A stretch of 64,000 nt of DNA from an uncultured Bacilli bacterium (GCA_934167875.1 CAKPMC010000006.1:16646-80645); one strand, 5' to 3'. Counted from the first letter of the stretch, positions 4,518 through 39,298 are shown. Numbers and translations are program-made. Notes: generated by a model from the letters alone, not told the origin.

Positions 4518-5714
4518 ATGGTTGAAAAATTAGAACAAATTTATTTAATGGATAAAAACTTTAAATTTGTCCAAAGAACTAAAGACAAATTTATCTATAA
4601 GTATGAAGATAAAGAATTAGAACAATTAAATATTCTAGAACTTTTATTTTCTGAAGAAGAACAAAGAATTAAAAAAATAGATATCTATACTTTTTCAGGA
4701 TTAGAACCAATAGAAACTATGCATATTATAAGGGGTACAGACAATATCACTGAGGTTGATTATTATCCTAATGGATATGAGAATCTAACTATAGATAAAA
4801 TAAGCGAGCCTTATAGTATTAGTGTTTATCTTCAATTTAGTGAATTAGATGGTAATAATTACCAAGAATACAAAGAAATAGAATTGGTAAAAAAGGGTCA
4901 TAAAAAACACAAAGTATTATCTCAAATTCCATTAGAAGAAAATTACTATATTACTAAAGATAGTAGAATTCATTATATTTCTTCTAATAGTATAAGCAAA
5001 CTAAAAAGATTAACAGAGTTTTTAGTACCATCAATAAAAGAGATAGAAAAAAGATTATTTAATCCAGAAAGTATTGAATCATTAGAGAATGAAGATGATA
5101 ATGATCAAGCTATATTAGAACCTATTGATGGAACATATCCTGAACAAATGTATATATATGATCGTAATTATAATTTATTAGGAAAAAAATCTGGTGCTAT
5201 AGTATATCAAAATACTGAAGATGAAATTAAAGAGTTAGAAATTTATTTTACTGACGATAAGAGCAAATTAAAAGAAGTAAGATTAATTGATTATAGTGAT
5301 TCATATTTAGAAGGAATCAAAGTAAAATCTAAACGTAGAATAATTAGATTTTTGGTTACTAAAGATAATAAAATAAATGTAACATTATGTAATCGTAGAA
5401 AAGAACCAATGATAATAAATAGTCACACTATAGATAGAAATAATATTGCTGCTAGAGCCATAATAAATCAAAGTAATGAAATAGAAAAATTAGAAGTAAA
5501 AATCCAAAATCAATTAGGAACTTTCAATTTAACTAAATCACCTACTAAAAATATGGAATTTATTGATAAAAATAATGTTAGTTATCTAATTTCCTCAAAT
5601 TCTTTTGAACAGTTTAGAGTGTTTATAAGATATGTACCATTTATTCTAGGAGCATTAGAAAACAAATTAATCCCAGTTGACGAAGAAAAAAGTCCTATAT
5701 TAATTAAAAAGTAA
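4518..5714 (+). CDS. hypothetical protein (398 aa), first gene of the accessory segment
   Basis: Long ORF with RBS GGGAG. No motif recognised. Confidence 0.35.
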   Translation: MVEKLEQIYLMDKNFKFVQRTKDKFIYKYEDKELEQLNILELLFSEEEQRIKKIDIYTFSGLEPIETMHIIRGTDNITEVDYYPNGYENLTIDKISEPYSISVYLQFSELDGNNYQEYKEIELVKKGHKKHKVLSQIPLEENYYITKDSRIHYISSNSISKLKRLTEFLVPSIKEIEKRLFNPESIESLENEDDNDQAILEPIDGTYPEQMYIYDRNYNLLGKKSGAIVYQNTEDEIKELEIYFTDDKSKLKEVRLIDYSDSYLEGIKVKSKRRIIRFLVTKDNKINVTLCNRRKEPMIINSHTIDRNNIAARAIINQSNEIEKLEVKIQNQLGTFNLTKSPTKNMEFIDKNNVSYLISSNSFEQFRVFIRYVPFILGALENKLIPVDEEKSPILIKK

Positions 5715-5922
5715 AAGCTATCATCTTACAGCTTTTACTTTTTACTATTACATAATTTTTATATCTACATTCAATTAATAATCAACTCAATAATGTTGTT
5801 TAATTATTTTTAGAAATATGATATCATAAGCTTAATACAGAAAGATGATCCGAGATTAAAGATTCCATGTGAAGAAGTAGTAGATTTTGAAAATAAAGAA
5901 TTTTATCAAAATTTAATTAATC

Positions 5923-5977
5923 AAATTGTGGCAGCGAGCGTAAATCAATATGCATTTGCTGCAGCAGCCCACAATTT
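5923..5977. repeat. imperfect inverted repeat AAATTGTGGCAGC...GCTGCAGCAGCCCACAATTT
   Basis: 9-bp perfect outer arms AAATTGTGG/CCACAATTT plus inner CAGC/GCTG pairing. The arms resemble the AAATTTGTGG cassette core found at 7439-11239. Confidence 0.5.
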
Positions 5978-6087
5978 GGTATAAATAAAAGATTTATTTT
6001 AATGATAAGTGCAGTAGAAAGAAAAGTAAAAAATATAAATTAAAACAAATTTCATTAAAACCACTTGTTAAAAAGATAAAACAAAAA

Positions 6088-6513
6088 ATGTATCTTCCAG
6101 AGATGACAGTAGATGATTTCTTTACTACACAAGAAGAAAGAGATTTAAAAAGTAAAGAACACGTTGAAATGGTTGATATTAATGATATATCAGATTTTCC
6201 TAATCATCCTTTTAAAGTTATAGTAAATGAAGATATGTTAAATATGAGTAAGAGTATTGAAAAATATGGGGTGTTAGTACCGGCTTTAGTTAGACCAAAA
6301 GAAAATGGTAAATATGAAATGATTTCAGGTCATAGAAGAAAGAAAGCATTAGAAATTTTAGGAATACAAGAAATAGAAAAGATTACTGATAAATCTAGAG
6401 AAGAATTAATATTAACTAAAGAATCTGATAAAACTTACTGGTTTAATGGAAATTTAACTTATAATATTACTTTTAGGCTGAATATTTGCAATGACCATTA
6501 TTGGAGATATTAA
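6088..6513 (+). CDS. ParB/Srx-like N-terminal nuclease-domain protein, probably truncated
   Basis: VPALVRPKENGKYEMISGHRRKKALEILG matches the ParB N-terminal domain GxRR box. The C-terminal 30 aa is low-complexity with no HTH domain. Confidence 0.45.
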   Translation: MYLPEMTVDDFFTTQEERDLKSKEHVEMVDINDISDFPNHPFKVIVNEDMLNMSKSIEKYGVLVPALVRPKENGKYEMISGHRRKKALEILGIQEIEKITDKSREELILTKESDKTYWFNGNLTYNITFRLNICNDHYWRY

Positions 6514-6552
6514 ATTACTTAAGTGATTCTTTACTTATAAAAACCGATATAT

Positions 6553-7140
6553 TTAATAATTACTTTTTAATCTTTTTTGAATAATTTGGCTTTTTCGTTT
6601 CGTTTCATTTGTTAAATCTTCTAATGTGAATCCAAGCAATTGTGAAAGATATAGTATTTCTACTAATAATTTTTTTACAGTTTCTTTTTCAAGCTTTTGG
6701 ATTAAATCATTTCCTAATTTATAAAGTGTCAGAAATGTTTCTATAATATCTTTGTTACTTGTTGCAGAAAAATTTTCACTTAAAGATACATTTGTAATGT
6801 TACAAAAATATAATATCATAAATAAACAATCAATATATTCTTCTAATATATGATTTTTTTCACCAGTTTGATTTATTGACCAAAATTTAAAACATCTTGT
6901 TTCGTTAGCTAGTTCCCCAAATTCTACCAATAATTCAAGTTTATATTTTTTTATAATTTCAGGAGATTTGATATCAAATTGTAATGAAAATAAATCATCT
7001 AAATATTTTGTTTCTTTATATATTTCTTCTATGTTTAGCATAAATGTCACTTCTTTCTTAAAATCTATAGATTGATTATGAGTATTGTTAATTAATCGGA
7101 TTATATGATGTATTTTATCATTAAAATTAGTATTTAGCAA
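6553..7140 (-). CDS. all-alpha NTP-pyrophosphatase, dimeric dUTPase-like (tentative)
   Basis: Pattern ...LELLVEFGELANE..CFKFW....EEYIDCLFMILYF resembles dimeric dUTPase/MazG-like motifs, which are typical of phage and plasmid cargo. Confidence 0.3.
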   Translation of the reverse strand: MLNTNFNDKIHHIIRLINNTHNQSIDFKKEVTFMLNIEEIYKETKYLDDLFSLQFDIKSPEIIKKYKLELLVEFGELANETRCFKFWSINQTGEKNHILEEYIDCLFMILYFCNITNVSLSENFSATSNKDIIETFLTLYKLGNDLIQKLEKETVKKLLVEILYLSQLLGFTLEDLTNETKRKSQIIQKRLKSNY

Positions 7141-7430
7141 CTAACTGATGTTGTAACATACATCTAATGGAGATTTTGCTATGTTTCAAGATAATACTAA
7201 CTTAAACTTGTATAAATTATTTTATGATGTTGCTAAATAGGAAAGTATTTTAAATGTTGTTCAAAAAAATAATTGATATTACGGACACGGATTTAGAAAT
7301 TGAACATTATATCAATTAAATACCATAATAATAGAAAAGGGAGTTAAGATGACTTCCTTGTTTTATTGTAAAATAAGTGTTAAAATAAGTTACTAGAAAA
7401 CATTTAGTTTTACTTAGTTTTATTTAGTGT

Positions 7431-7463
7431 TATTTAGTAAATTTGTGGCCGGCATGTGTGTCC
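7431..7463 (+). repeat. cassette-boundary core, R-type copy 1 (TATTTAGTAAATTTGTGGCC...)
   Basis: Direct repeat shared with 7940, 9201, 9694 and 11228. Confidence 0.6.
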
Positions 7464-7571
7464 TATGCGTGTTCACAAAAAAAAGACCTATCAGTTAAGT
7501 GCTAGGCCACGAATTTTTGCTGATTGGACACGAATTTATTGGTTGATATGAGTCGTAATAAGGAGGGCATT

Positions 7572-7843
7572 ATGTTTAAATTAGAATCAAAATATACACC
7601 TAGTGGAGATCAACCACAGGCAATTAAGGAATTAGTAGAAGGAATTAAAGAAGGAAAAAGAGGCCAAGTTTTACTAGGGGCAACGGGGACAGGAAAAACT
7701 TTTACGATTGCTAATGTAATTAAAGAAGTTAATAAACAACCCTAGTACTTGCCCATAATAAAACACTTGCTGGACAACTTTATTCAGAATTAAAAGAATT
7801 GTTTCCAAATAATCACGTATGTTACTTTGTTTCTTATTATAGA
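7572..7843 (+). pseudogene. uvrB: uvrB 5' fragment A (promoter-proximal ~90 codons, frameshifted and truncated)
   Basis: [55 protein letters not shown] is near-identical to the N-terminus of intact UvrB at 11361. A 1-nt deletion near 7741 gives an in-frame stop at 7745, and homology continues in another frame to ...TTCTTATTAT at 7840. Confidence 0.8.
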
Positions 7844-7877
7844 AAAATCATAAAACCCCTTTTATTTCAATAATTTT

Positions 7878-7977
7878 AGTTTTATTTAATCCCTCGAAAA
7901 TACCATAAAAAGACTAAATAAAACTGGATAATGAAATGTAAATTTGTGGTCGAAATTCGTATTTATCCGTGTCTACT
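7878..7977 (+). repeat. L-type boundary: 13-bp-stem hairpin (AGTTTTATTTAAT...ACTAAATAAAACT) plus core AAATTTGTGGTCGAAATTCGTAT
   Basis: Near-identical 75-nt segment at 9655-9730. Confidence 0.6.
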
Positions 7978-8056
7978 AAAAAATTGAAAATAACGATAAT
8001 ATGTGATATATTATTAATCAATAAAAAGGGACTTTTTTAACATTGATGATTAAGGA

Positions 8057-9202
8057 ATGATTATAATGATTAAATATTATAAAGAACTAGAAAATAGATT
8101 GAATTATTATTTACCATTAGTAGATATTCAAGATAAAGGGAAAAAAGTATTATTTGATTATAAGACACCATTTTCATTTGTAGAAAAATATGAAGATTTA
8201 TTTAAAAATAGTGAATTTCTAATTACTATTTTTAAAGGGTTTAATATTGATGAATGGTTTCGAAATAATATATATATTGATTATGATAATGCCTGTTCTA
8301 TTTCTAGTGAATTTGAAAGTATAGAAGAAGAAATTTATTGCATATTAGAAGAATATGGGAAAATAAATTTTTCTTCTAGAGCAATAGAAAATTATTTATA
8401 TCTAATTAAAAGATTATCCATTTTATATATAGATTTATTTCCAAATAATAAACAATATTATACTTCACTTAATAATACAATAGTTGCAGCAATAGAAGAA
8501 TTAAAAAAATACAATACTATTCACTATATTCCAGATAAAGTAGATAATCTATATCAACCAGATGCATGGTATATAACACCTAATGGTTATTTATATAATG
8601 CCGGAAAATATGGACATAACGGTAGGGATTTAACGTTCAATTATAATAAAATGAAATATTTTATAAATAATAATGAAAATATATTAGACAATCATAAAAT
8701 TTCAAACGGATATTTAAATCTGTCTAAAAAAATAAAAGAAAATGGTTATATATCTGCAGGACAATTTAAGGTGTTTTTAAATTATATAAGTCAACCAGCC
8801 TATTTAGAGTCAATTAATGGAATACCAGTAACGAGAGAAAACCATATAATCCAATTAATTTTAGGTATAATTAATGCTCAAGCATGCTTTTATAGATTTT
8901 TTGAAGATTTATTTATATATACTGAAAAACCAGAAAATGAAATACATAAAATAATAAATTGGACTAATGATGATATAGGAGATGTATTAGTTAGGTGCTG
9001 TGGTTTTCATAAAATTGAATCAATGCTGGAAAAAACTATTACAACTAGTTGTATAAATTATGAAAATGAGTTGGAGGAATATATAAATAATGGGTGGAAC
9101 ATAGTATTTATACCACCATTTATTATTGATAAAGATAACCATTGTCTAAAAGAATATCCAGAAGATTTTTTAGTTATAAAAAGATTGTTGAAAACTATCT
9201 AG
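8057..9202 (+). CDS. hypothetical protein (381 aa), cargo of cassette 1
   Basis: Own TTGAAA-17-TATATT promoter at 7985-8013. No recognisable domain. Confidence 0.45.
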   Translation: MIIMIKYYKELENRLNYYLPLVDIQDKGKKVLFDYKTPFSFVEKYEDLFKNSEFLITIFKGFNIDEWFRNNIYIDYDNACSISSEFESIEEEIYCILEEYGKINFSSRAIENYLYLIKRLSILYIDLFPNNKQYYTSLNNTIVAAIEELKKYNTIHYIPDKVDNLYQPDAWYITPNGYLYNAGKYGHNGRDLTFNYNKMKYFINNNENILDNHKISNGYLNLSKKIKENGYISAGQFKVFLNYISQPAYLESINGIPVTRENHIIQLILGIINAQACFYRFFEDLFIYTEKPENEIHKIINWTNDDIGDVLVRCCGFHKIESMLEKTITTSCINYENELEEYINNGWNIVFIPPFIIDKDNHCLKEYPEDFLVIKRLLKTI

Positions 9203-9240
9203 TTTTATTTAGTAATTTGTGGCAAAATTCATCCTCATCC
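9201..9240 (+). repeat. cassette-boundary core, R-type copy 2 (AGTTTTATTTAGTAATTTGTGGCAAAATTCATCC)
   Basis: Direct repeat of the 7431 and 11213 elements. Confidence 0.6.
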
Positions 9241-9324
9241 AAAAAAAGACATATTTTTAATGTTATGAAAATAGATTAGGACACGAATTTGTTGGTTGAT
9301 ATGAGTCGTAATAAGGAGGGCATT

Positions 9325-9633
9325 ATGTTTAAATTAGAATCAAAATATACACCTAGTGGAGACCAACCACAAGCGATAGATGAGTTAGTTAAAGGAATAG
9401 AAAATGGCGAAAAACACCAAGTTTTACTAGGTGCAACTGGAACTGGAAAAACTTTTACGATTGCTAATGTAATTAAGGAAGTTAATAAACCAACCTTAGT
9501 ACTTGCCCATAATAAGACACTTGCGGGACAACTTTATTCAGAATTAAAAGAGTTGTTTCCAGAAAATCATGTATGCTATTTTGTTTCTTATTATAGGAAC
9601 CCATCGAAAACTATCTTATTCAGTACCTTTTAG
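9325..9633 (+). pseudogene. uvrB: uvrB 5' fragment B (in-frame 103-aa truncated copy retaining the Walker A GATGTGKT)
   Basis: [90 protein letters not shown], then diverges at the same TTCTTATTAT point (9594) as fragment A. Confidence 0.8.
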
Positions 9634-9730
9634 ATTTATTTAGTACCTCAAAGATACTATAAAAAGACTAAATAAAACTAGATAATAAAATGTAAATTTG
9701 TGGCCAAAATTCGTATTCATTCGTATTTAT
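9632..9730 (+). repeat. L-type boundary: hairpin (AGATTTATTTAGT...ACTAAATAAAACT) plus core AAATTTGTGGCCAAAATTCGTAT
   Basis: Parallels 7878-7977. Confidence 0.6.
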
Positions 9731-9822
9731 AAAAAATAATAAATTTAAACTAATATATTTTTATTATTTTTTTTGTAAGATTAAAGTTATAATAATAAAA
9801 ATATGATAAAATAATATGAGAG

Positions 9823-10533
9823 GTGATTTTAGTGAAATTAAATGATATTGAACAATTAACAAATGAAGAAATAGAAAAGATATATGAAAAATGTTTAGAA
9901 TATGCAAATAGAATTAAAAATCCAGATTTAAAGGAATGTTGTTTAGAAATTTATAATGATTATAAATCAAAACTTATAGCAAAACCAGCTACTGGAGATC
10001 CATGTCATCATTTTTTTAGAGGTGGTTTAATATATCATAGTTATTGCGTAACCAGAAATGCTATTATGATTGCAGAATTGTATGATTATATAAAATTAGA
10101 TATGGACTTAATAATATTTGGTTCATTATTACATGATATAGGAAAGACAAATGATTATAAAGATTTTGATTCTATAGAAAAAGGTGAAACAGGAATACTA
10201 AGTAGTGGTTCATATATGGTGGGTCATTCATACGAAGGAACTCATATTGTTGAAAATTATTTAGAAAAATATAATTTAGAAGATAAGTTTAAATATCAAG
10301 TTTTACATATGATAGGAAGTCATATGAAAGAATTTAGTGAATGGGGAGTATTAACATCACCAAAAATGTTAGAAGTAATAGTAATTAACTATGGTGATTC
10401 AATGGATGCTAGATTAGATAAAACAAGAAATGGTATTAATAATTCTGAAAAAGGTGAATTATATTATAATGAAAATCAAACGGCAAAATTTTATAAATCA
10501 ATAAATCCATATTACGAAAATGATAATTTATAA
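9823..10533 (+). CDS. HD-superfamily phosphohydrolase (YhaM-like HD domain), cargo of cassette 2
   Basis: HHFFRGGLIYHSYCV ... LLHDIGK ... HSYEGTH ... SHM ... D: an HD metal-binding motif series. Confidence 0.55.
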   Translation: MILVKLNDIEQLTNEEIEKIYEKCLEYANRIKNPDLKECCLEIYNDYKSKLIAKPATGDPCHHFFRGGLIYHSYCVTRNAIMIAELYDYIKLDMDLIIFGSLLHDIGKTNDYKDFDSIEKGETGILSSGSYMVGHSYEGTHIVENYLEKYNLEDKFKYQVLHMIGSHMKEFSEWGVLTSPKMLEVIVINYGDSMDARLDKTRNGINNSEKGELYYNENQTAKFYKSINPYYENDNL

Positions 10534-10663
10534 TTAAAATAAATATGCATCAAAAAGAAAAATTATAAAATATAAAAAAATATTCAAGAAGAAAATTTAA
10601 CTAATGATGGAATTAACGAGCTGATTATGGAACATTATATTTTCATAAATAAAGGAGTAAAAA

Positions 10664-11086
10664 ATGCAAAAAAAATTAAGTTTTATGACCTTGAATGATG
10701 TAAATATTGGAATAAGTAAAATTGAATTAAATAAATGGGATTTAATAATTATTGATAAATCTGGTAAATATTGTTTAAAAATCTGTGTGCAATATAATTG
10801 GAAAGATATCAATAACATAAAAACTGGTCAAAAACAAGAAATTGATTTTAACGAATATTGTTTAGCTGAAAACAATGAATCTGCTTTGATTTGGCCATCT
10901 AATTCCTATGTAGAAAAAATAAGTGATGATTCTATATGTTTTAATTTGGAATTTAAAAATTTATCTAATTCGACGCATTATATGAATAAAAGAGGTTGTT
11001 TTGATATTCAGTTAAATTCTCTTGAGGCTAAGGTTTTTATTGATTATAAAGATGCAATAGATGATTCTGTCATATATAATCTATAA
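10664..11086 (+). CDS. hypothetical protein (140 aa), cargo of cassette 2
   Basis: ORF with RBS AAAGGAG. No motif recognised. Confidence 0.35.
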   Translation: MQKKLSFMTLNDVNIGISKIELNKWDLIIIDKSGKYCLKICVQYNWKDINNIKTGQKQEIDFNEYCLAENNESALIWPSNSYVEKISDDSICFNLEFKNLSNSTHYMNKRGCFDIQLNSLEAKVFIDYKDAIDDSVIYNL

Positions 11087-11212
11087 AAAAAAGAAGTTGT
11101 TATGATAGAAAATAAAATAATGTATAATAATATATTGGAAGCATTAATTTTGCTTCCTTGTTTTATTATCAAAATAATGTTAAAATGAATTATTGAGAAA
11201 GACTTTAATTAC

Positions 11213-11360
11213 TTATTTTTATTTAATAAATTTGTGGCCGAAATTCGTATCCAAGAAAAAAAGATACATTTTTGATGCTGTAAAAATAGGTTAGGATACG
11301 AATTTTTAAAAATAGGATACGAATTATCTGGCTGGTAGTAGTCATAGTAAGGAGGACCAT
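11213..11360 (+). promoter_or_regulatory. uvrB upstream region: R-type core copy 3 plus dyad AAATTCGTATCC-N43-GGATACGAATTT(+GGATACGAATT), RBS AGGAGG
   Basis: Seen directly in the sequence. The same half-site GGACACGAATTT precedes both uvrB fragments (7526, 9279). Confidence 0.5.
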
Positions 11361-13319
11361 ATGTTCAAAATTCATTCAAAATATACACCGAGTGGTGATC
11401 AACCCCAGGCAATTAAGGAATTAGTAGAAGGTATTAAAGAAGGAAAACGCGACCAGGTTTTACTAGGAGCAACGGGAACAGGAAAAACTTTTACGATTGC
11501 TAATGTAATTAAAGAAGTTAATAAACCAACCCTAGTTTTAGCTCATAATAAAACACTTGCGGGACAACTTTATTCAGAATTAAAAGAATTGTTTCCTAAC
11601 AATCACGTATGCTATTTTGTATCCTATTATGATTATTACCAACCAGAAGCCTATGTTCCATCTACAGATACCTATATAGAAAAAGATTCATCTATTAATG
11701 ATGAAATTGATGAACTTCGTCACTATGCAACAAGCTCTCTTTTATCTTATGATGATGTCATTGTAGTAGCCAGTGTAAGTTGTATTTACGGTATTGGTGA
11801 AGTAGAAGAATATCGAAACAAAATGCTAAGCATAGGAGTAGGAGATAATGTAGAAAGAAACACTATCATGACGAAACTAGTAGAAATGATGTACGAAAGA
11901 AATGATTTTGATTTTAAGCGTGGTACCTTTAGAGTAAAGGGTGATGTTCTAGAAATCATACCAGCCTATGAAAACACAAAAGGGTATAGAATTGAGTTTT
12001 TTGGTGATGAAATAGATAGAATTAGTGAAATAGATTCTCTAACTGGAGCAGTTATTCAAAATAAAAAAACATTAACTATTTTTCCAGCCAGTCACTTTGT
12101 AACTAGTGATGAAAAACTAATAGAGGCAGTGAAAAGAATTAAACTAGAATTAGCTGATAGGATTCAATATTTTAAAGATAATAATAAACTACTAGCAGCA
12201 GAAAGAATAGAACAGCGTACAAACTATGATATAGAAATGTTAACTGAAACAGGATTCTGTCGTGGTATTGAAAACTATTCTCGTCATATGGCTTTACGTG
12301 GTGAAGGAGAAACCCCAACTACTTTAATGGATTTCTTTCCAAAAGATTTTTTATTAGTAATAGATGAATCCCATGTAACACTTCCTCAGGTAAGGGGAAT
12401 GTATAATGGTGATAGAGCTAGAAAAATGAATTTAGTAGAGTATGGCTTTAGACTACCAAGTGCACTAGATAATAGACCATTAAAATTTGAGGAATTTGAG
12501 AAAAAAATCAATCAAGTTATTTATGTATCAGCAACTCCAGGAGATTACGAATTAGAAAAGACTAGTAATCAGTTTATTGAACAAATTATTCGTCCAACTG
12601 GACTTCTTGATCCAACAATTGAAGTAAGACCAAGTAAAGGTCAAATTGATGATTTAATTGGTGAAATTAAAGCTAGAATTGCGAAAAACGAACGTACTTT
12701 AATAACCACTCTAACAATTAGAATGGCAGAAGAATTAGCGAATTACCTAAAAGATATTGATATTAAAGTGGCATATTTACATAGTGAAGTAAAAACATTA
12801 GAAAGAATGCGCATTATTAGAGATTTAAGATTAGGTAAATATGACTGTATTGTTGGAATCAATCTATTACGTGAAGGAATTGATATACCAGAAGTTAGTT
12901 TGATAGCAATTATGGATGCTGATAAAGAAGGATTCTTGCGTAGTGAAAGAAGTTTAATTCAAACAATTGGTAGATGTGCTAGAAATGCTAGTGGTCATTG
13001 TATTATGTATGCTGATAAAATAACAGACAGTATGGATAAGGCTATTAAAGAAACAATGCGTCGTCGTACAATTCAGGAAGAATATAATAAAGAACATGGT
13101 ATTACGCCACAGACAATCAAAAAAGAAATTAGAGATTTAATTAGTAATGTCGATGACAACAAAGAAAAACAAACATCTCCTAAGAAGAAAGATAAAAAAG
13201 AATTATTAAAAATGATAGATGAAATCGAAGAATCTATGAAACAAGCAGCAAAGGAATTAGATTTCGAACGTGCTATGCAGTTAAGAGATGCATTATTTGA
13301 ATTAAAGAGTGAATTATAA
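11361..13319 (+). CDS. uvrB: excinuclease ABC subunit B
   Basis: Full-length 652 aa with helicase motifs, beta-hairpin region [10 protein letters not shown], and C-terminal UvrB-UvrC interaction domain ...[10 protein letters not shown]... Confidence 0.95.
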
Positions 13320-14158
13320 TGAAAAAGTTTAAGAAAATATATATAGAAATCACGAATATCTGTAATCTTAATTGCTCTTTTTGTAGTAAAGATAATCGTA
13401 TAAAAGAAAGTATTTCGCTAACGAATATGGAAGAACTATTAAAGAAAATTAATGATTATACGGATTATGTTTATCTTCATGTAAAAGGTGAACCATTACT
13501 ACACCCAAAGTTAAAAGAAATCTTAGATTTATGTGAAAAATATCATAAAAAAGTAAATATTACGACGAATGCTACACTTCTAAAATCCAAAGAAACAATC
13601 CTATCTCATACAGCTATTCGCCAAATTAATTTATCAGTACATAGTGAAAATCAAGAAAAAAATTATTTAGAAGAAATCTTTGAAGTAACTGATAAACTGA
13701 AAGAAAAGAATATTGTTTATCGTTTTTGGACTATGAATGATAATAATCTAAATAAAAAATCAACAGAATTAGTGGAAAAAATAATAAATCATTACAAGTT
13801 GTCCCCAGAAATTGTGGAAAAAATAAAAACAGACAACAATATTAAAATAAATAGTAACACTTATGTGAATAAAGCTAATCAATTTGTTTGGCCTAATATT
13901 AATAATGATTATTATAACGATAAAGGATATTGTTACGCTTTAAAAGATCAATTAGCTATTTTAGTAGACGGTACTGTTGTACCATGCTGTTTAGATAGTG
14001 ATGGCATCATTAATTTAGGAAACATTTATAGTAATACTATAGAAGTTATTATAAATAGTAGTCGCTATCAAAAAATGAGAAGTGGTTTCTGCAATCGTAA
14101 AGTAACTGAAGAACTATGTAAACACTGTAGTTACAAAGAAAGATTTGACATTAATTAA
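13319..14158 (+). CDS. radical SAM / SPASM-domain enzyme (279 aa)
   Basis: CNLNCSFC (CxxxCxxC) near the N-terminus plus GEPLL. The C-terminal Cys-rich region PCCLDSDG...CKHC is SPASM/twitch-like. ATG overlaps the uvrB TAA. Confidence 0.65.
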   Translation: MKKFKKIYIEITNICNLNCSFCSKDNRIKESISLTNMEELLKKINDYTDYVYLHVKGEPLLHPKLKEILDLCEKYHKKVNITTNATLLKSKETILSHTAIRQINLSVHSENQEKNYLEEIFEVTDKLKEKNIVYRFWTMNDNNLNKKSTELVEKIINHYKLSPEIVEKIKTDNNIKINSNTYVNKANQFVWPNINNDYYNDKGYCYALKDQLAILVDGTVVPCCLDSDGIINLGNIYSNTIEVIINSSRYQKMRSGFCNRKVTEELCKHCSYKERFDIN

Positions 14159-14188
14159 ATTATAAATATAATAGAAAAGGTGATTTGA

Positions 14189-14656
14189 ATGAAAATAGTA
14201 CAAAATGAAGTATGTTATGTAGAAAGAGAAGATATTTATAATTTAAGAATGTTTCCTCAGTATGTTGTTTCTGAAATTAACTTTAGATCTAATTCTAAAT
14301 ATATAAAATTTGAAAATCCTAGATCAATAAATTATTTCTCAGAAAGTGATTTTATAATCGACTATACTGAAATATGCAATTTATCATTAGCAGAAATAAC
14401 TCTAAAGATAGAAAAATTAAAACAAAGTTTAAGTAATTTAGCTGGTGAATGGTTATATGCTTCTGAAAATTTAAGAGAAAGTTTGGATAGGAATAGAGAT
14501 TATAATTATAAAATTAAGTCAATTAAATACATACTAATGTCTATGGAAAAATATATGAATAATAAAGAAACTTATGATGAAGAAATAGAACAGTTATCAT
14601 TTACTAAAAGTAAATTAAAAGAACCTATAAAAGCTTTAGAATATCATTATCAGTAA
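14189..14656 (+). CDS. hypothetical protein (155 aa)
   Basis: ORF with RBS AAAGGTG. Confidence 0.35.
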   Translation: MKIVQNEVCYVEREDIYNLRMFPQYVVSEINFRSNSKYIKFENPRSINYFSESDFIIDYTEICNLSLAEITLKIEKLKQSLSNLAGEWLYASENLRESLDRNRDYNYKIKSIKYILMSMEKYMNNKETYDEEIEQLSFTKSKLKEPIKALEYHYQ

Positions 14657-14726
14657 GATATTGACATGATTGCTTATATATAGTAAAATAATCCTCCTGA
14701 TTAAAATTAGGAGAAAAGGTGATTAT

Positions 14727-15023
14727 ATGGGTATATATAATAAAGTATATATAGGGCATGTTGAAACAGTTAATCTTGATGTAAGTGTACACCAATCACC
14801 AATAGAGTCTAAAGTAATTGCACTCCAATTGAATAATATTGATAAAAACAGAAATATTATAACTTATAAACCATTAAGACAATATAGTGAATATTATAAG
14901 TTAGTTAGTGTAGAGGAAAAACCATTAACAGGTACTTTTGGTAATATTGTTGGTGATAAGGATATTAATTTTGCCTTAAAGAAAACTGGAAAACAGGAAG
15001 TAAAAAAACTGAGAAAGTGTTAA
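14727..15023 (+). CDS. hypothetical protein (~98 aa; track ORF 14670 probably starts at the internal Met after RBS AGGAGAAAAGGTG)
   Basis: ORF only. Confidence 0.3.
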   Translation: MGIYNKVYIGHVETVNLDVSVHQSPIESKVIALQLNNIDKNRNIITYKPLRQYSEYYKLVSVEEKPLTGTFGNIVGDKDINFALKKTGKQEVKKLRKC

Positions 15024-15107
15024 ATGCACTTTCTTTTTCTATAAACATTTAACTGATTGCTATAAAGAACTTATTTTGTTAAAATTGTTGTAAAGGAGAG
15101 GAATGAA

Positions 15108-15497
15108 ATGAAAAATAGACAATATAAATTATTACTATTTTTTGGATTGTTAGTAATGTACTATATCTTTGCTTTAAACAATATAACCATTCCTTGTTTA
15201 TTTAATAAGATAACTAATTTATATTGTCCAGGATGTGGTGTTACCAGAATGTTATTATCCATTTCAAAATTAAATTTTTACCAAGCCTTTAGATATAATC
15301 AATTAGTATTTATATTTTTGCCCTTTATTTTATTACTATTAATAGACTTTTTATTAAAATGGCTGAAGAATCAAAATAATTACATATATTTAAGAATAAA
15401 TAATAAAGTATGGGTAGTTTTGTTAATAATCGTTTTAGTATTTGGAATACTAAGAAATATTCCCCTCTTTGATTATCTAAAACCAATTATTATATAG
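15108..15497 (+). CDS. small membrane protein, DUF2752-like (CPGCG motif)
   Basis: LYCPGCGVTRM plus 3-4 TM segments. Confidence 0.35.
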   Translation: MKNRQYKLLLFFGLLVMYYIFALNNITIPCLFNKITNLYCPGCGVTRMLLSISKLNFYQAFRYNQLVFIFLPFILLLLIDFLLKWLKNQNNYIYLRINNKVWVVLLIIVLVFGILRNIPLFDYLKPIII

Positions 15498-37951: not shown

Positions 37952-39298
37952 ATGGAAATGTCAGTATATTTAAAAAAACATACTAAAGAAATAGCTGAAC
38001 TTATTGAAAAGTATAGTTATGTTGAAGATGTTAATGTACAAGAAGTAATACTTAGTATTATTGAAAATCATCTTAAAAAAAATCAGAATGTATCATTTGA
38101 AAATATCACTAAATCTGTTGACAAATTTTTTGAAGTAAAAGATGCTAAAAAATTATCACCAACAGAGTTAACTAATAAATATGTAAGACAGTTGATTGAA
38201 GGTGGCACAGAAAATATTTTGTTACCATTCTCTAAAAGACTAGTTGCCTATAAAGTTCAATTAGATCCAGAAGATTATTTAGAAATTATTAAAAACAATA
38301 AAATAATAAAAACGGAGTTGCAAGAATTAATTGATAGTTATGACACTAATGACAAAAATGAAGTTATTTTACCCAAAAATTTTGCTAATTACCATTTAAG
38401 AAACTTAATAGAAGGATATTGTTTATTAAATAAAATAGAAATATATGAACCTCAACTAATTGAAAATGATCCTACAATGACAGATGATATAAGATTGTAT
38501 TTAAAAGAAATAAGTAAAGTACCATTATTAACTAAAGAGTTAGAATATAAATATGCTGTTGCTACCAAAGCTGGTGATGAAATAGCTAGAAAAAAATTAA
38601 TTGAATCTAATCTACGTTATGTTGTAGCTATAGCTAAAAAATATATAGGTAGTGGAATGACCTTATTAGATTTAATCCAAGAAGGAAATATTGGCTTAAT
38701 GAAAGCTGTAGATAAGTATGATCCTGAAATGGGATATAGATTTACTACATATGCAACCTGGTGGATACGACAAGCTATTACTCGTTCGATAGCTGATCAG
38801 TCTCGAACTATTAGAATACCAGTTCATTTACATGATAGAGTCAACAAAATGAATAGAGTATCAAAATACTTATATCAAAAGTTAGGCCATGATCCAAGTG
38901 ATGAAGAACTAGCAAAAGAATTAAATTTAACTGTTAAAGATATATTAGATATGAGACAGATAAGTCAAGAATTAGTATCATTAGAAAGACCTATAGGTGA
39001 GGATGAAGATGATACTGTTGGCCAATTTATAAGTGATGATAAACCAACACCAGAAGAAGAAGCAATCAATAATAAATTTCAAGAAGAAGTAATTAAACTA
39101 TTAGATTGTTTGACAGAAAGAGAAAGAAAAGTTATCGAACTTCGTTTTGGAATAGGAGTACCTGAACCTATGACACTTGAAGAAGTTGGCCACATATTTG
39201 GTGTAACAAGAGAAAGAATTCGCCAAATAGAAGCCAAATCATTAAGAAAATTAAGAAGTCCACTTAGGTCAAAGCACTTAAGAGGATATATTGATTAA
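37952..39298 (+). CDS. sigA: primary-like sigma factor (RpoD/SigA-like)
   Basis: Regions 1.2-4.2 match the RpoD consensus closely ([67 protein letters not shown]). Confidence 0.8.
   Translation: MEMSVYLKKHTKEIAELIEKYSYVEDVNVQEVILSIIENHLKKNQNVSFENITKSVDKFFEVKDAKKLSPTELTNKYVRQLIEGGTENILLPFSKRLVAYKVQLDPEDYLEIIKNNKIIKTELQELIDSYDTNDKNEVILPKNFANYHLRNLIEGYCLLNKIEIYEPQLIENDPTMTDDIRLYLKEISKVPLLTKELEYKYAVATKAGDEIARKKLIESNLRYVVAIAKKYIGSGMTLLDLIQEGNIGLMKAVDKYDPEMGYRFTTYATWWIRQAITRSIADQSRTIRIPVHLHDRVNKMNRVSKYLYQKLGHDPSDEELAKELNLTVKDILDMRQISQELVSLERPIGEDEDDTVGQFISDDKPTPEEEAINNKFQEEVIKLLDCLTERERKVIELRFGIGVPEPMTLEEVGHIFGVTRERIRQIEAKSLRKLRSPLRSKHLRGYID

Follow-up and report, generated by a model that had tools for sequence, protein, structure and literature searches.

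A tandem array of decayed elements at codon 90 of uvrB in an uncultured Bacilli bacterium, very probably the product of lambda/Tn916-type tyrosine integrases

In lambda and Tn916 one arm has its arm sites in tandem, and the other has them inverted. The SXT/R391 ICE reportedly integrates into the 5' end of prfC, a finding that is said to go back to Hochhut and Waldor in 1999. The closest described islands are those built in Firmicutes by CIMEs and by tandem ICE-IME accretion, such as the ICESt1/ICESt3-related islands of Streptococcus thermophilus (PMC5704250). A CIME (cis-mobilizable element) is a decayed element that is devoid of integration and transfer genes and has kept attL and attR; CIME tandems arise in three steps (PMC5704250).

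Here we describe DNA from an uncultured Bacilli bacterium, in which three integrative elements very probably form a tandem array at positions 7266-11630 of the window (the whole 64,000-nucleotide stretch that was analyzed), each of them placed at the same TATTAT in uvrB by a tyrosine integrase of the lambda/Tn916 type. Like the S. thermophilus islands, the array consists of decayed elements that keep attL and attR, and tyrosine recombinases and an intact target gene are common to both. However, the islands there lie at the 3' end of fda or of a tRNA gene, whereas here uvrB is entered near its 5' end (codon 90). At about 430 bp, the target segment repeated here is also unusually long (the promoter, a leader of ~190 nt with arm repeats, and 90 codons), and mobility here is putative. 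The array shares with SXT/R391 a housekeeping gene as target, entered by a tyrosine integrase in its 5' coding part, the formation of tandem arrays, and an element that brings a new promoter and 5' coding sequence and leaves the gene functional. This likeness is one of description: neither the integrase family nor the host phylum nor the target gene is related, and the segment shared by attP and attB of SXT/R391 is short (17 bp).

Lambda and Tn916/Tn1549 resemble the array in their three-domain integrase (N-terminal beta-sheet, SAM-like core-binding and catalytic domains, predicted here) and in short direct repeats in both arms, tandem in P' and of mixed orientation in P. The P-arm repeats here, however, are some 390 bp away from the crossover, farther than in lambda, and fall within the target gene's leader; unlike Tn916, the array uses a single specific target site. 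With integron arrays it has in common ordered small cassettes at one site, the newest by a fixed point, and upstream promoters that can read into cassettes; it differs in being without IntI, attI and attC, in recombining within a protein-coding target, and in having the target's 5' end copied in every unit. The features are, from left to right:

5830-7140, no strand assigned: cassette 0, probable eroded remains of the oldest element
about 5830-5985: deformylase-like pseudogene piece of cassette 0, read from the sequence
6088-6513, plus strand: truncated ParB_N gene of cassette 0 (Pfam ParB_N; PHROGs ParB-like protein)
6553-7140, minus strand: dUTPase_2 gene of cassette 0 (Pfam dUTPase_2; PHROGs NTP pyrophosphohydrolase)
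7266-7316, plus strand: tyrosine integrase remnant, last 17 codons (tblastn with the L017 integrase fragment)
7337-7359, plus strand: terminator hairpin (terminator scan)
7358-7386, plus strand: uvrB-type promoter, TTGTTT (7358-7363), 17 nt, TGTTAAAAT (7378-7386), read from the sequence
7406-7535, plus strand: R arm A (putative P arm of attR), with three TAGTTTTATTTAGT-type repeats in 10-bp phase (7406-7438), tandem decamers ATTTGTGGCC (7441-7450), ATGTGTGTCC (7454-7463) and ATGCGTGTTC (7465-7474), and inverted decamers GGCCACGAAT (7505-7514) and GGACACGAAT (7526-7535)
7572-7840, plus strand: uvrB' fragment A, codons 1-90, ending at TATTAT (7835-7840)
7841-7977, plus strand: L arm 1 (putative P' arm of attL) with the conserved AAAACCCCTTTTATTT block, an inverted repeat (7878-7890/7913-7925), and decamers ATTTGTGGTC (7942-7951), ATTCGTATTT (7955-7964) and ATCCGTGTCT (7965-7974)
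7984-9202, plus strand: cassette 1 cargo, with a promoter-like site at 7984-8012 (promoter scan)
8066-9202, plus strand: cassette 1 gene, 378 aa, no assigned function
9200-9288, plus strand: R arm B, decayed and without a promoter of its own, with one TAGTTTTATTTAGT repeat (9200-9213), decamer ATTTGTGGCA (9215-9224), a degenerate second decamer, and a single inverted decamer GGACACGAAT (9279-9288)
9325-9594, plus strand: uvrB' fragment B, codons 1-90, frame intact, crossover hexamer at 9589-9594
9595-9730, plus strand: L arm 2, with an inverted repeat (9632-9644/9667-9679) and decamers ATTTGTGGCC (9696-9705), ATTCGTATTC (9709-9718) and ATTCGTATTT (9719-9728)
9832-11086, plus strand: cassette 2 cargo
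9832-10533, plus strand: HD-domain hydrolase of cassette 2 (Pfam HD domain)
10664-11086, plus strand: 140-aa protein of cassette 2, no assigned function
11137-11324, plus strand: terminator (11137-11157), promoter (11158-11186) and R arm C, with a degenerate repeat (11215-11227), decamers ATTTGTGGCC (11230-11239) and ATTCGTATCC (11243-11252), and inverted decamers GGATACGAAT (11294-11303 and 11315-11324)
11361-13319, plus strand: intact uvrB (Pfam UvrB domains), crossover hexamer at 11625-11630

Cassette 0 is missing attL and the original uvrB 5' fragment; its positions 6070-6354 are 94-95% identical to the ParB gene of a ParA/ParB element in L005, L017 and L063 (L numbers denote related loci that were compared with the window). 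The terminator/promoter block at 7337-7386 recurs at 11144-11205 (repeat family D5), and at other loci the uvrB-type promoter is conserved both in front of R arms and in front of native uvrB genes. Fragment A has a 1-nt deletion near 7737, which places residues 1-55 and 57-90 in two frames (tblastn); fragment B is 89% identical in amino acids to intact uvrB. The TAG stop codon of the 378-aa gene is the first triplet of R arm B.

An earlier note had described one core that occurs five times in the same orientation. The five sites do exist, all on the plus strand, but only those at 7940, 9694 and 11228 are nearly exact copies of the 23-nt motif AAATTTGTGGCCGAAATTCGTAT (1, 1 and 0 mismatches). 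The copies at 7439 (AAATTTGTGGCCGG, then variant decamers) and 9214 (AATTTGTGGC, then a shortened, degenerate second half) are partial. The chance expectation for the 23-nt motif is none, and it was matched in 0/100 shuffles. A looser 14-nt pattern finds the five sites and, with 1 mismatch, a further one on the opposite strand at 39185 (6 matches in the 64-kb window against 0.25 expected). Within the window the core is not simply abundant, the case in which its association with the cassettes would have lost its meaning: the motif is limited there to the 4-kb array. Distances between successive copies (501, 1274, 480 and 1534 nt) alternate as described.

The core itself is two of three tandem 10-bp repeats with the consensus ATTCGTGTCC and the first repeat ATTTGTGGCC. 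The L-arm decamers are located ~100-135 nt inside attL and the tandem decamers of the R arm ~130 nt upstream of the element-borne uvrB start; the R arm contains in addition two inverted copies (GGACACGAAT), 21 nt apart, just 5' of the uvrB ribosome-binding site. The window holds 11 decamer matches against 3.8 expected, a number that 0/100 shuffles reached, and 8 of the 11 fall within 7283-11324. The main element family has ATTTGTGGCC..ATTCGTGTCC in both arms, the L038/L040 subfamily GTTTGTGACTTTTATGTGTKGC in L and R alike, and the L036/L037/L083 subfamily TTTTGTGACTTTTATTCGTAAC; the decamer sequence covaries between the two arms across these subfamilies. The decamers are enriched and present in both arms, and we infer that they are arm-type sites for a putative binding by the N-terminal domain of the integrase. 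No such arms were found in phage or plasmid records, and a search of 5700-11500 with Rfam covariance models for a uvrB leader RNA family gave no match at E <= 1.

Every cargo is bounded by an L copy on the left and an R copy on the right, as claimed before. Over 226-242 nt the two L regions share 80% identity, which rises to about 90% in the central 75 nt, in agreement with the similar 75-nt stretch that had been pointed out; the most conserved part of the L arm is a 45-nt block, AAAAAGACTAAATAAAACT..AAATTTGTGG. The 13-bp-stem hairpin ascribed to the L copies is found at both as an inverted repeat with a 22-nt loop, but with one mismatch (12/13 positions complementary). The folding check gave the hairpin no support: treated as single-stranded DNA, the two regions are no stabler than shuffled sequence (z = -0.22 and -0.40). 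The repeat is conserved, with 80% of cells pairing versus 36-50% when the partners are slid; three pairs change on both sides, a number equalled by 60/500 shuffles. The L-arm hairpin is a conserved inverted repeat without thermodynamic support and with little support from covariation.

In the R form the motif of the hairpin's left arm abuts the core, as had been observed (7426-7438, 9201-9213 and, with 2 mismatches, 11215-11227), and at 7406-7438 it is tripled at 10-bp intervals. In the R arm the TAGTTTTATTTAGT repeats follow one another in tandem, and in the L arm they make up the inverted pair; they may be sites for an accessory or bending factor or else intrinsically curved DNA. To say that 45 bp are deleted in R relative to L is a fair description of the sequences, but no deletion event is needed, since other genomes have about 20 non-redundant elements with these same two layouts of the arms.

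The repeats belong to site-specific recombination sites, and in this respect the proposal of att-like sites was right; the core, however, is not the crossover point. The exchange point is the TATTAT hexamer of uvrB codons 89-90 (7835-7840, 9589-9594 and 11625-11630), which lies ~100 nt left of each L core and ~390 nt right of each R core, and uvrB nt 1-270 are repeated at every junction. Comparison of core and arms with relatives, which had been suggested as a check, revealed that the arms accompany breaks at uvrB codon 90: similarity to uvrB stops after this codon in ~40 fragments on ~30 contigs of uncultured Bacilli, and an L arm comes next after most of them.

The same position marks the replacement of the 5' end of uvrB. 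Between near-identical strains identity is 82-88% over nt 1-270 versus 94-99.6% beyond (window and L076, 87.8% and then 94.4-98.4%; L038 and L040, 81.9% and then 98.1-99.6%), and the last dense mismatch in these mosaic comparisons is at nt 267. The leftmost uvrB fragments of L011, L018, L020, L038, L061 and L080 have a native promoter and a short leader and are without R arm, which is the expected look of a displaced chromosomal 5' end. As in the lambda and Tn916/Tn1549 systems, the core of the exchange site is imperfectly symmetrical about an overlap of 6-7 bp (TTTCT-TATTAT-AGAAA). The attL hexamer (TAGTAT in several loci) is not the same as that of attR (TAT/TACTAT), a difference that suggests a possible tolerance of a mismatched overlap, as in Tn916.

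Tyrosine integrase genes are linked to these sites. They are located directly upstream of the R arm in L017, L027, L036-L043, L047, L049, L076, L080, L083 and L084, while L053 has a full-length gene (432 aa) directly after the L arm. The window encodes no integrase beyond the last 17 codons at 7266-7316. This remnant is in the expected place and 82% identical to residues 217-233 of the L017 fragment (tblastn), and 7266-7982 aligns with L017 2757-3472 at 88.7%. Most integrase genes of the relatives are truncated; P0009, for example, is without the N-terminal domain. In the full-length proteins a beta-sheet-plus-helix domain is predicted at the N-terminus (residues 10-65, pLDDT about 90), together with a SAM-like and a catalytic domain; in structure they match Tn1549 Int and full-length lambda Int best. 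The match of the N-terminal domain to Pfam Arm-DNA-bind_4 is sub-threshold (E about 0.005, 17 bits versus a cutoff of 22.3).

The L and R forms are very probably the inner arms P' and P of an attP of the lambda/Tn916 type, split by integration, and the uvrB fragments old 5' ends of the target gene displaced by insertions, not spacers. In its circular form an element would run from the L arm through cargo, (integrase), terminator, promoter and R arm to the leader and first 90 codons of uvrB, and from there back to the L arm. Upon integration its promoter and first 90 codons would be fused to the remaining chromosomal uvrB, and the earlier promoter and 5' end would be displaced, leaving a 90-codon fragment on the left, followed by the L arm. 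uvrB would stay intact because the integrating element supplies the promoter and the first 90 codons. Repeated integration into the intact gene would stack the elements with the oldest leftmost, and codons 1-90 of the present uvrB (11361-11630) would come from the latest one. All three have very probably lost the integrase, the leftmost retaining its last 17 codons. The junction of neighbouring elements in a tandem array is itself the attP sequence, so that assemblies cannot distinguish a circle from an array.

The decamers could alternatively be transcription-factor operators for the element-borne uvrB promoter and the cargo, in an array that still consists of integrated elements. Their position in the uvrB leader is equally compatible with such a role: the decamers of the R arm follow the promoter (7358-7386; 11158-11186) and precede the ribosome-binding site, with an inverted pair about 40-55 nt apart and a further inverted copy 21 nt on, and those of the L arm are just upstream of the cargo promoter at 7984-8012. 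Yet native uvrB promoters are without decamers, which are confined to these elements, change jointly in L and R from one element subfamily to the next, and follow the classic arm-site layout, in tandem (three copies) on one side and inverted on the other. We consider the operator role rather unlikely; the two roles are not mutually exclusive. The inverted repeat of the L arm and the adjoining 45-nt block could also form an origin of transfer, a hairpin beside a nick site, from which a helper relaxase would mobilize the integrase-less cassettes. They match the usual oriT layout, in which the inverted repeat stands a few bases 5' of a conserved stretch; the block is the most conserved part of the arm, and one related element, L036, has a NikA-like gene. 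This reading is improbable given that the core also occurs in the R arm, there without inverted repeat, that most elements have no linked relaxase, and that the AT-rich stem with its 13-45-nt loop folds no better than shuffles and covaries weakly.

Small cassettes, promoterless or with one gene, and an imperfect inverted repeat at every left boundary are also what sites of the integron kind, or others that recombine as single-strand hairpins (attC-like or IS200/IS605-like), would offer if exchange took place at the core. The sites are not integron attC, as the mismatch in geometry had already indicated: the junctions are in uvrB, and the loci yielded neither an IntI-type nor a HUH enzyme. The associated recombinases are of the lambda/Tn916 type and adjoin attP-like sequences, and the hairpin has the weaknesses given above. 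Exchange occurs at uvrB codon 90 and neither at the core nor at the hairpin; the mosaic break at uvrB nt 267-270 contradicts this reading, which is very improbable. Three direct repeats of about 430 bp (family D1) might suggest local duplication upstream of uvrB by slippage or unequal homologous recombination, followed by gene insertion and without any site-specific element. However, the copies differ among themselves by 10-27%, many genomes share the break point and the arms, there with unrelated cargo and with integrases, and cassette 1 is closer across hosts than uvrB. The comparative data contradict local duplication, to which we give almost no credence.

Integration at uvrB codon 90 remains the preferred explanation, and the cargo adds to it. 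Cassette 1 is present in 9 other contigs; its DNA is 82.7-88.2% identical between hosts and their uvrB (nt 271-1959) just 71.8-83.6%, a comparison which shows that this integrase-less cassette has spread horizontally. Its 378-aa protein could be placed in no PADLOC or PHROG family, and no Pfam match exceeded the threshold. The HD-domain hydrolase of cassette 2 gave weak matches of the Cas3-HD type only (PADLOC), and no homologue of this cargo was found in any related locus compared. Cassettes 1 and 2 contain one or two genes each, none of them integrase-like, and each has an L arm and an R arm, of which R arm B is degenerate. Because the integrases are lost and the cargo lies between attL and attR, the two cassettes are CIME-like; they fit the CIME definition by sequence, with mobility being putative.

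Our search of the literature gave no report of uvrB as the target gene of such islands. The array would represent a kind of island building that is already known, on a target, uvrB, that is new to the literature searched.

A window scan for the 23-nt core motif of the cassette boundaries, with at most one mismatch allowed, detected copies at 7940, 9694 and 11228, where chance predicts none. The earlier note had described five copies in one orientation; the orientation is indeed the same in all five, but the copies at 7439 and 9214 are partial and contain only the first 10-14 nt of the motif. The exact motif is absent elsewhere in the 64 kb. The window belongs to a metagenome scaffold (ERZ28613878 scaffold_564) whose source is an uncultured, low-GC bacterium, and the genes of the window around the array are, in order:

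ftsE
ftsX
M23 peptidase gene
4518-5714, ORF of 398 aa, located between the M23 peptidase gene and the island
5830-5985, peptide-deformylase-like pseudogene piece
6088-6513, ParB gene, shortened to 141 aa
dUTPase_2 gene
7266-7316, remnant of a tyrosine integrase gene, last 17 codons
7984-9202, cargo of cassette 1, a 378-aa protein
9832-11086, cargo of cassette 2, an HD hydrolase and a 140-aa protein
13319-15497, interval between uvrB and uvrA, a radical-SAM/SPASM gene (279 aa) and three small ORFs

The uvrB upstream region together with codons 1-90 is present in three copies, which start at 7572, 9325 and 11361; the last is the only one that runs on into a complete gene. In both of the other copies, fragments A and B, the similarity to uvrB stops after TATTAT (codons 89-90) and is followed by L-type sequence, the attL-side arm (L arm) of an inserted element. 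Fragment B (9325-9633) has an intact reading frame of 102 aa, including the Walker A region, as well as a ribosome-binding site, and for this reason it could give rise to a truncated UvrB N-terminal peptide. Positions 6070-6354 share 94-95% identity with the ParB gene of a ParA/ParB element in three related loci (L005, L017 and L063). The 398-aa ORF has no match in Pfam, PHROG or PADLOC, and within the fetched loci it is related to a single ORF, in L061, at 37% identity. The radical-SAM protein gave a weak PADLOC match to viperin (pVip, 50 bits), which may only reflect the common radical-SAM fold.

When genomes were scanned with the L-arm pattern, this arm turned up in seven Bacilli metagenome-assembled genomes, in each case immediately 3' of a uvrB fragment of 90-91 codons. 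A further 21 loci were obtained from a metagenome scan with the core pattern. The related loci are labeled "uncultured Bacilli" or "Bacillales". About 25 of the 32 genome matches (mostly Flavobacteriia) and 18 of the 39 metagenome matches are unrelated sequences that fit the search patterns by chance. In four metagenome loci (L045, L048, L058 and L073) the 21-nt search pattern falls in intergenic DNA that is AT-rich and has CGTTGATAAT inverted repeats; these loci are probably chance matches as well, because neither uvrB nor an integrase is found nearby.

The layout that recurs across contigs is a uvrB fragment, cargo, an integrase gene and the attR-side arm (R arm), followed by uvrB or by the next fragment. 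In L017 a 233-aa integrase fragment lies immediately 5' of the R arm; it has many homologues, most of them truncated. The following layouts were found:

L038, single element of 3.9 kb
L040-L043, two tandem elements, both with an integrase gene of their own (split and truncated in one, 300 aa in the other)
L053, full-length 432-aa integrase on the opposite strand, immediately after the L arm
L064, integrase on the opposite strand immediately after the L arm, partial at the contig end
L083, tandem pair of tyrosine recombinase genes, and in addition an HTH_17 excisionase-like protein
L084, tandem pair of tyrosine recombinase genes
L086, tandem pair of tyrosine recombinase genes, with three serine recombinase genes upstream
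L087, tandem pair of tyrosine recombinase genes

The gene orders of L053, L064, L083, L084, L086 and L087 are variants within the same element superfamily.

Three lines of sequence evidence agree on codon 90 as the site of exchange. All of the approximately 40 fragments end after this codon. At the left end of an array, the fragment usually keeps a native promoter with a short leader and lacks an R arm, as expected for the original chromosomal 5' end. Furthermore, uvrB itself is a mosaic: between L038 and L040 nt 1-270 are 81.9% identical and the sequence thereafter 98.1-99.6%, while the corresponding values for the window and L076 are 87.8% and 94.4-98.4%. The last dense mismatch of this mosaic is at nt 267. 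The site is surrounded by an imperfect symmetry, TTTCT-TATTAT-AGAAA. In the attL of five loci (L005, L017, L020, L036 and L082) the hexamer reads TAGTAT, which places a stop at codon 89, whereas in attR the tyrosine codon is always kept and the functional uvrB copies have TATTAT or TACTAT. This difference between attL and attR suggests an overlap region formed by the hexamer, in which mismatches are tolerated; it also fits a staggered exchange, with nt 267 within the overlap.

The core consists of the first two of three decamers in tandem, ATTTGTGGCC, ATTCGTRTCC and ATKCGTRTYC. The R arm has two further, inverted copies (GGACACGAAT) spaced by 21 nt, which sit immediately before the conserved TGGTTGATATGAGTCATAATAAGGAGG leader and the start codon. 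The decamers in both arms are of the ATTCGTGTCC type. The window contains 11 decamer matches versus 3.8 expected, and eight of these fall within 7283-11324. The decamers covary between L and R arms by subfamily; L038 and L040 have GTTTGTGACTTTTATGTGTKGC in both arms alike, and L036, L037 and L083 have the variant TTTTGTGACTTTTATTCGTAAC. The full-length integrases have three domains, including an N-terminal domain of a beta-sheet plus helix that is predicted with high confidence, and their best structural matches are the Int of Tn1549 and full-length lambda Int. Because the decamers covary in both arms and are enriched, and because the three-domain integrases resemble these two proteins, we consider it reasonably probable that the decamers are arm-type integrase sites. 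An operator role is also compatible with their location, which is between the promoter and the ribosome-binding site. A function as ParB parS sites or as replication iterons was dropped, since the same repeats occur in elements that lack ParA/ParB, namely the second element of L040 and cassettes 1 and 2.

The two L-type regions, in which the earlier note had pointed out a near-identical stretch of 75 nt, are 80% identical overall and about 90% in the center. Each contains the inverted repeat that had been described as a hairpin with a 13-bp stem; the loop is 22 nt, and only 12 of the 13 positions are complementary. As single-stranded DNA, 7860-7980 and 9614-9735 are no more stable than shuffled sequence. 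Among 15 L arms the repeat is conserved, with 80% of the cells pairing; only three pairs changed on both sides, a number matched by 60 of 500 shuffles. With folding at the level of shuffled sequence and such weak covariation, the hairpin was rejected as a structural element. In the R-type copies the left-arm motif immediately precedes the core, as had been noted, and at 7406-7438 it occurs three times at 10-bp intervals (TAGTTTTATTTAGT repeats). Because the same motif forms direct repeats phased at 10 bp in the R arm, the data favor a motif that acts in duplex DNA, by binding a protein or bending the helix, over a folded hairpin.

A phage or plasmid origin of the arms was rejected: a scan of viral contigs with the L-arm pattern gave only two matches, both by chance, a viral scan with a full-length integrase gave no relatives, and in a blastn search of 7330-7990 against phage and plasmid records the uvrB coding part alone matched. 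The integron reading fails on the features tested (exchange point and integrase type), and an IS200/IS605-type reading fails on the tested features as well. A known RNA family fails as an explanation of the leader, for which an Rfam search returned no match. The array structure does match published tandem accretion; according to the same account (PMC5704250), insertion at gene 5' ends is the rarer case. In the literature searched, only unrelated mentions of uvrB turned up and no paper names it as an integrase target. SXT in prfC is a functional parallel to integration at the uvrB 5' end. Together, these results indicate that the repeat array is real and that a known mechanism acts at a target for which we found no report.

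Neither cassette encodes an integrase. For the 378-aa and 140-aa proteins, PADLOC and PHROG gave no family and Pfam none above threshold, and the HD protein has only generic HD or weak Cas3-HD matches. Cassette 1 occurs in nine other contigs, in some of them alone beside an intact uvrB and in others internal to an array. Between hosts its DNA is 82.7-88.2% identical versus 71.8-83.6% for the adjacent uvrB, and this higher identity indicates horizontal spread. The window and L076 have completely different arrays, with uvrB 96% identical. Cargo upstream of uvrB in the relatives includes restriction-modification, helicase, ParA/ParB, adhesin and lysin genes. Beside uvrB, L084 and L085 carry MmeI/Eco57I-type restriction-modification genes, a DEAD-box helicase and a protein that has a T5orf172 domain and matches a helicase (ResIII) weakly; this cargo is likely defense.

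It is conceivable, albeit improbable in our judgment, that the integrase-less units of one or two genes are a selected class of minimal cassettes. Such a cassette would combine cargo with a complete pair of arms and with a promoter and 5' end that replace those of uvrB; it would be captured and exchanged in trans by the integrases of co-resident elements, and the displaced uvrB promoter would serve the expression of the cassette on its right. If this were true, the uvrB 5' end would be an integron-like platform for gene capture in uncultured gut Bacilli.

The known mechanism accounts for a puzzling repeat architecture and makes uvrB an integration hotspot for which no report was found. In these uncultured Bacilli of the gut, a core gene of DNA repair has its promoter and first 90 codons overwritten by mobile elements time after time. 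Between near-identical strains, the first 270 nt of the functional uvrB have diverged far more than the remainder; the 5' end of the gene is therefore element-derived and cannot be relied on as a marker of vertical descent here. Such elements can be delimited in metagenome assemblies by a simple rule based on break point and arm motifs, and strain-specific accessory genes may be sought upstream of uvrB.
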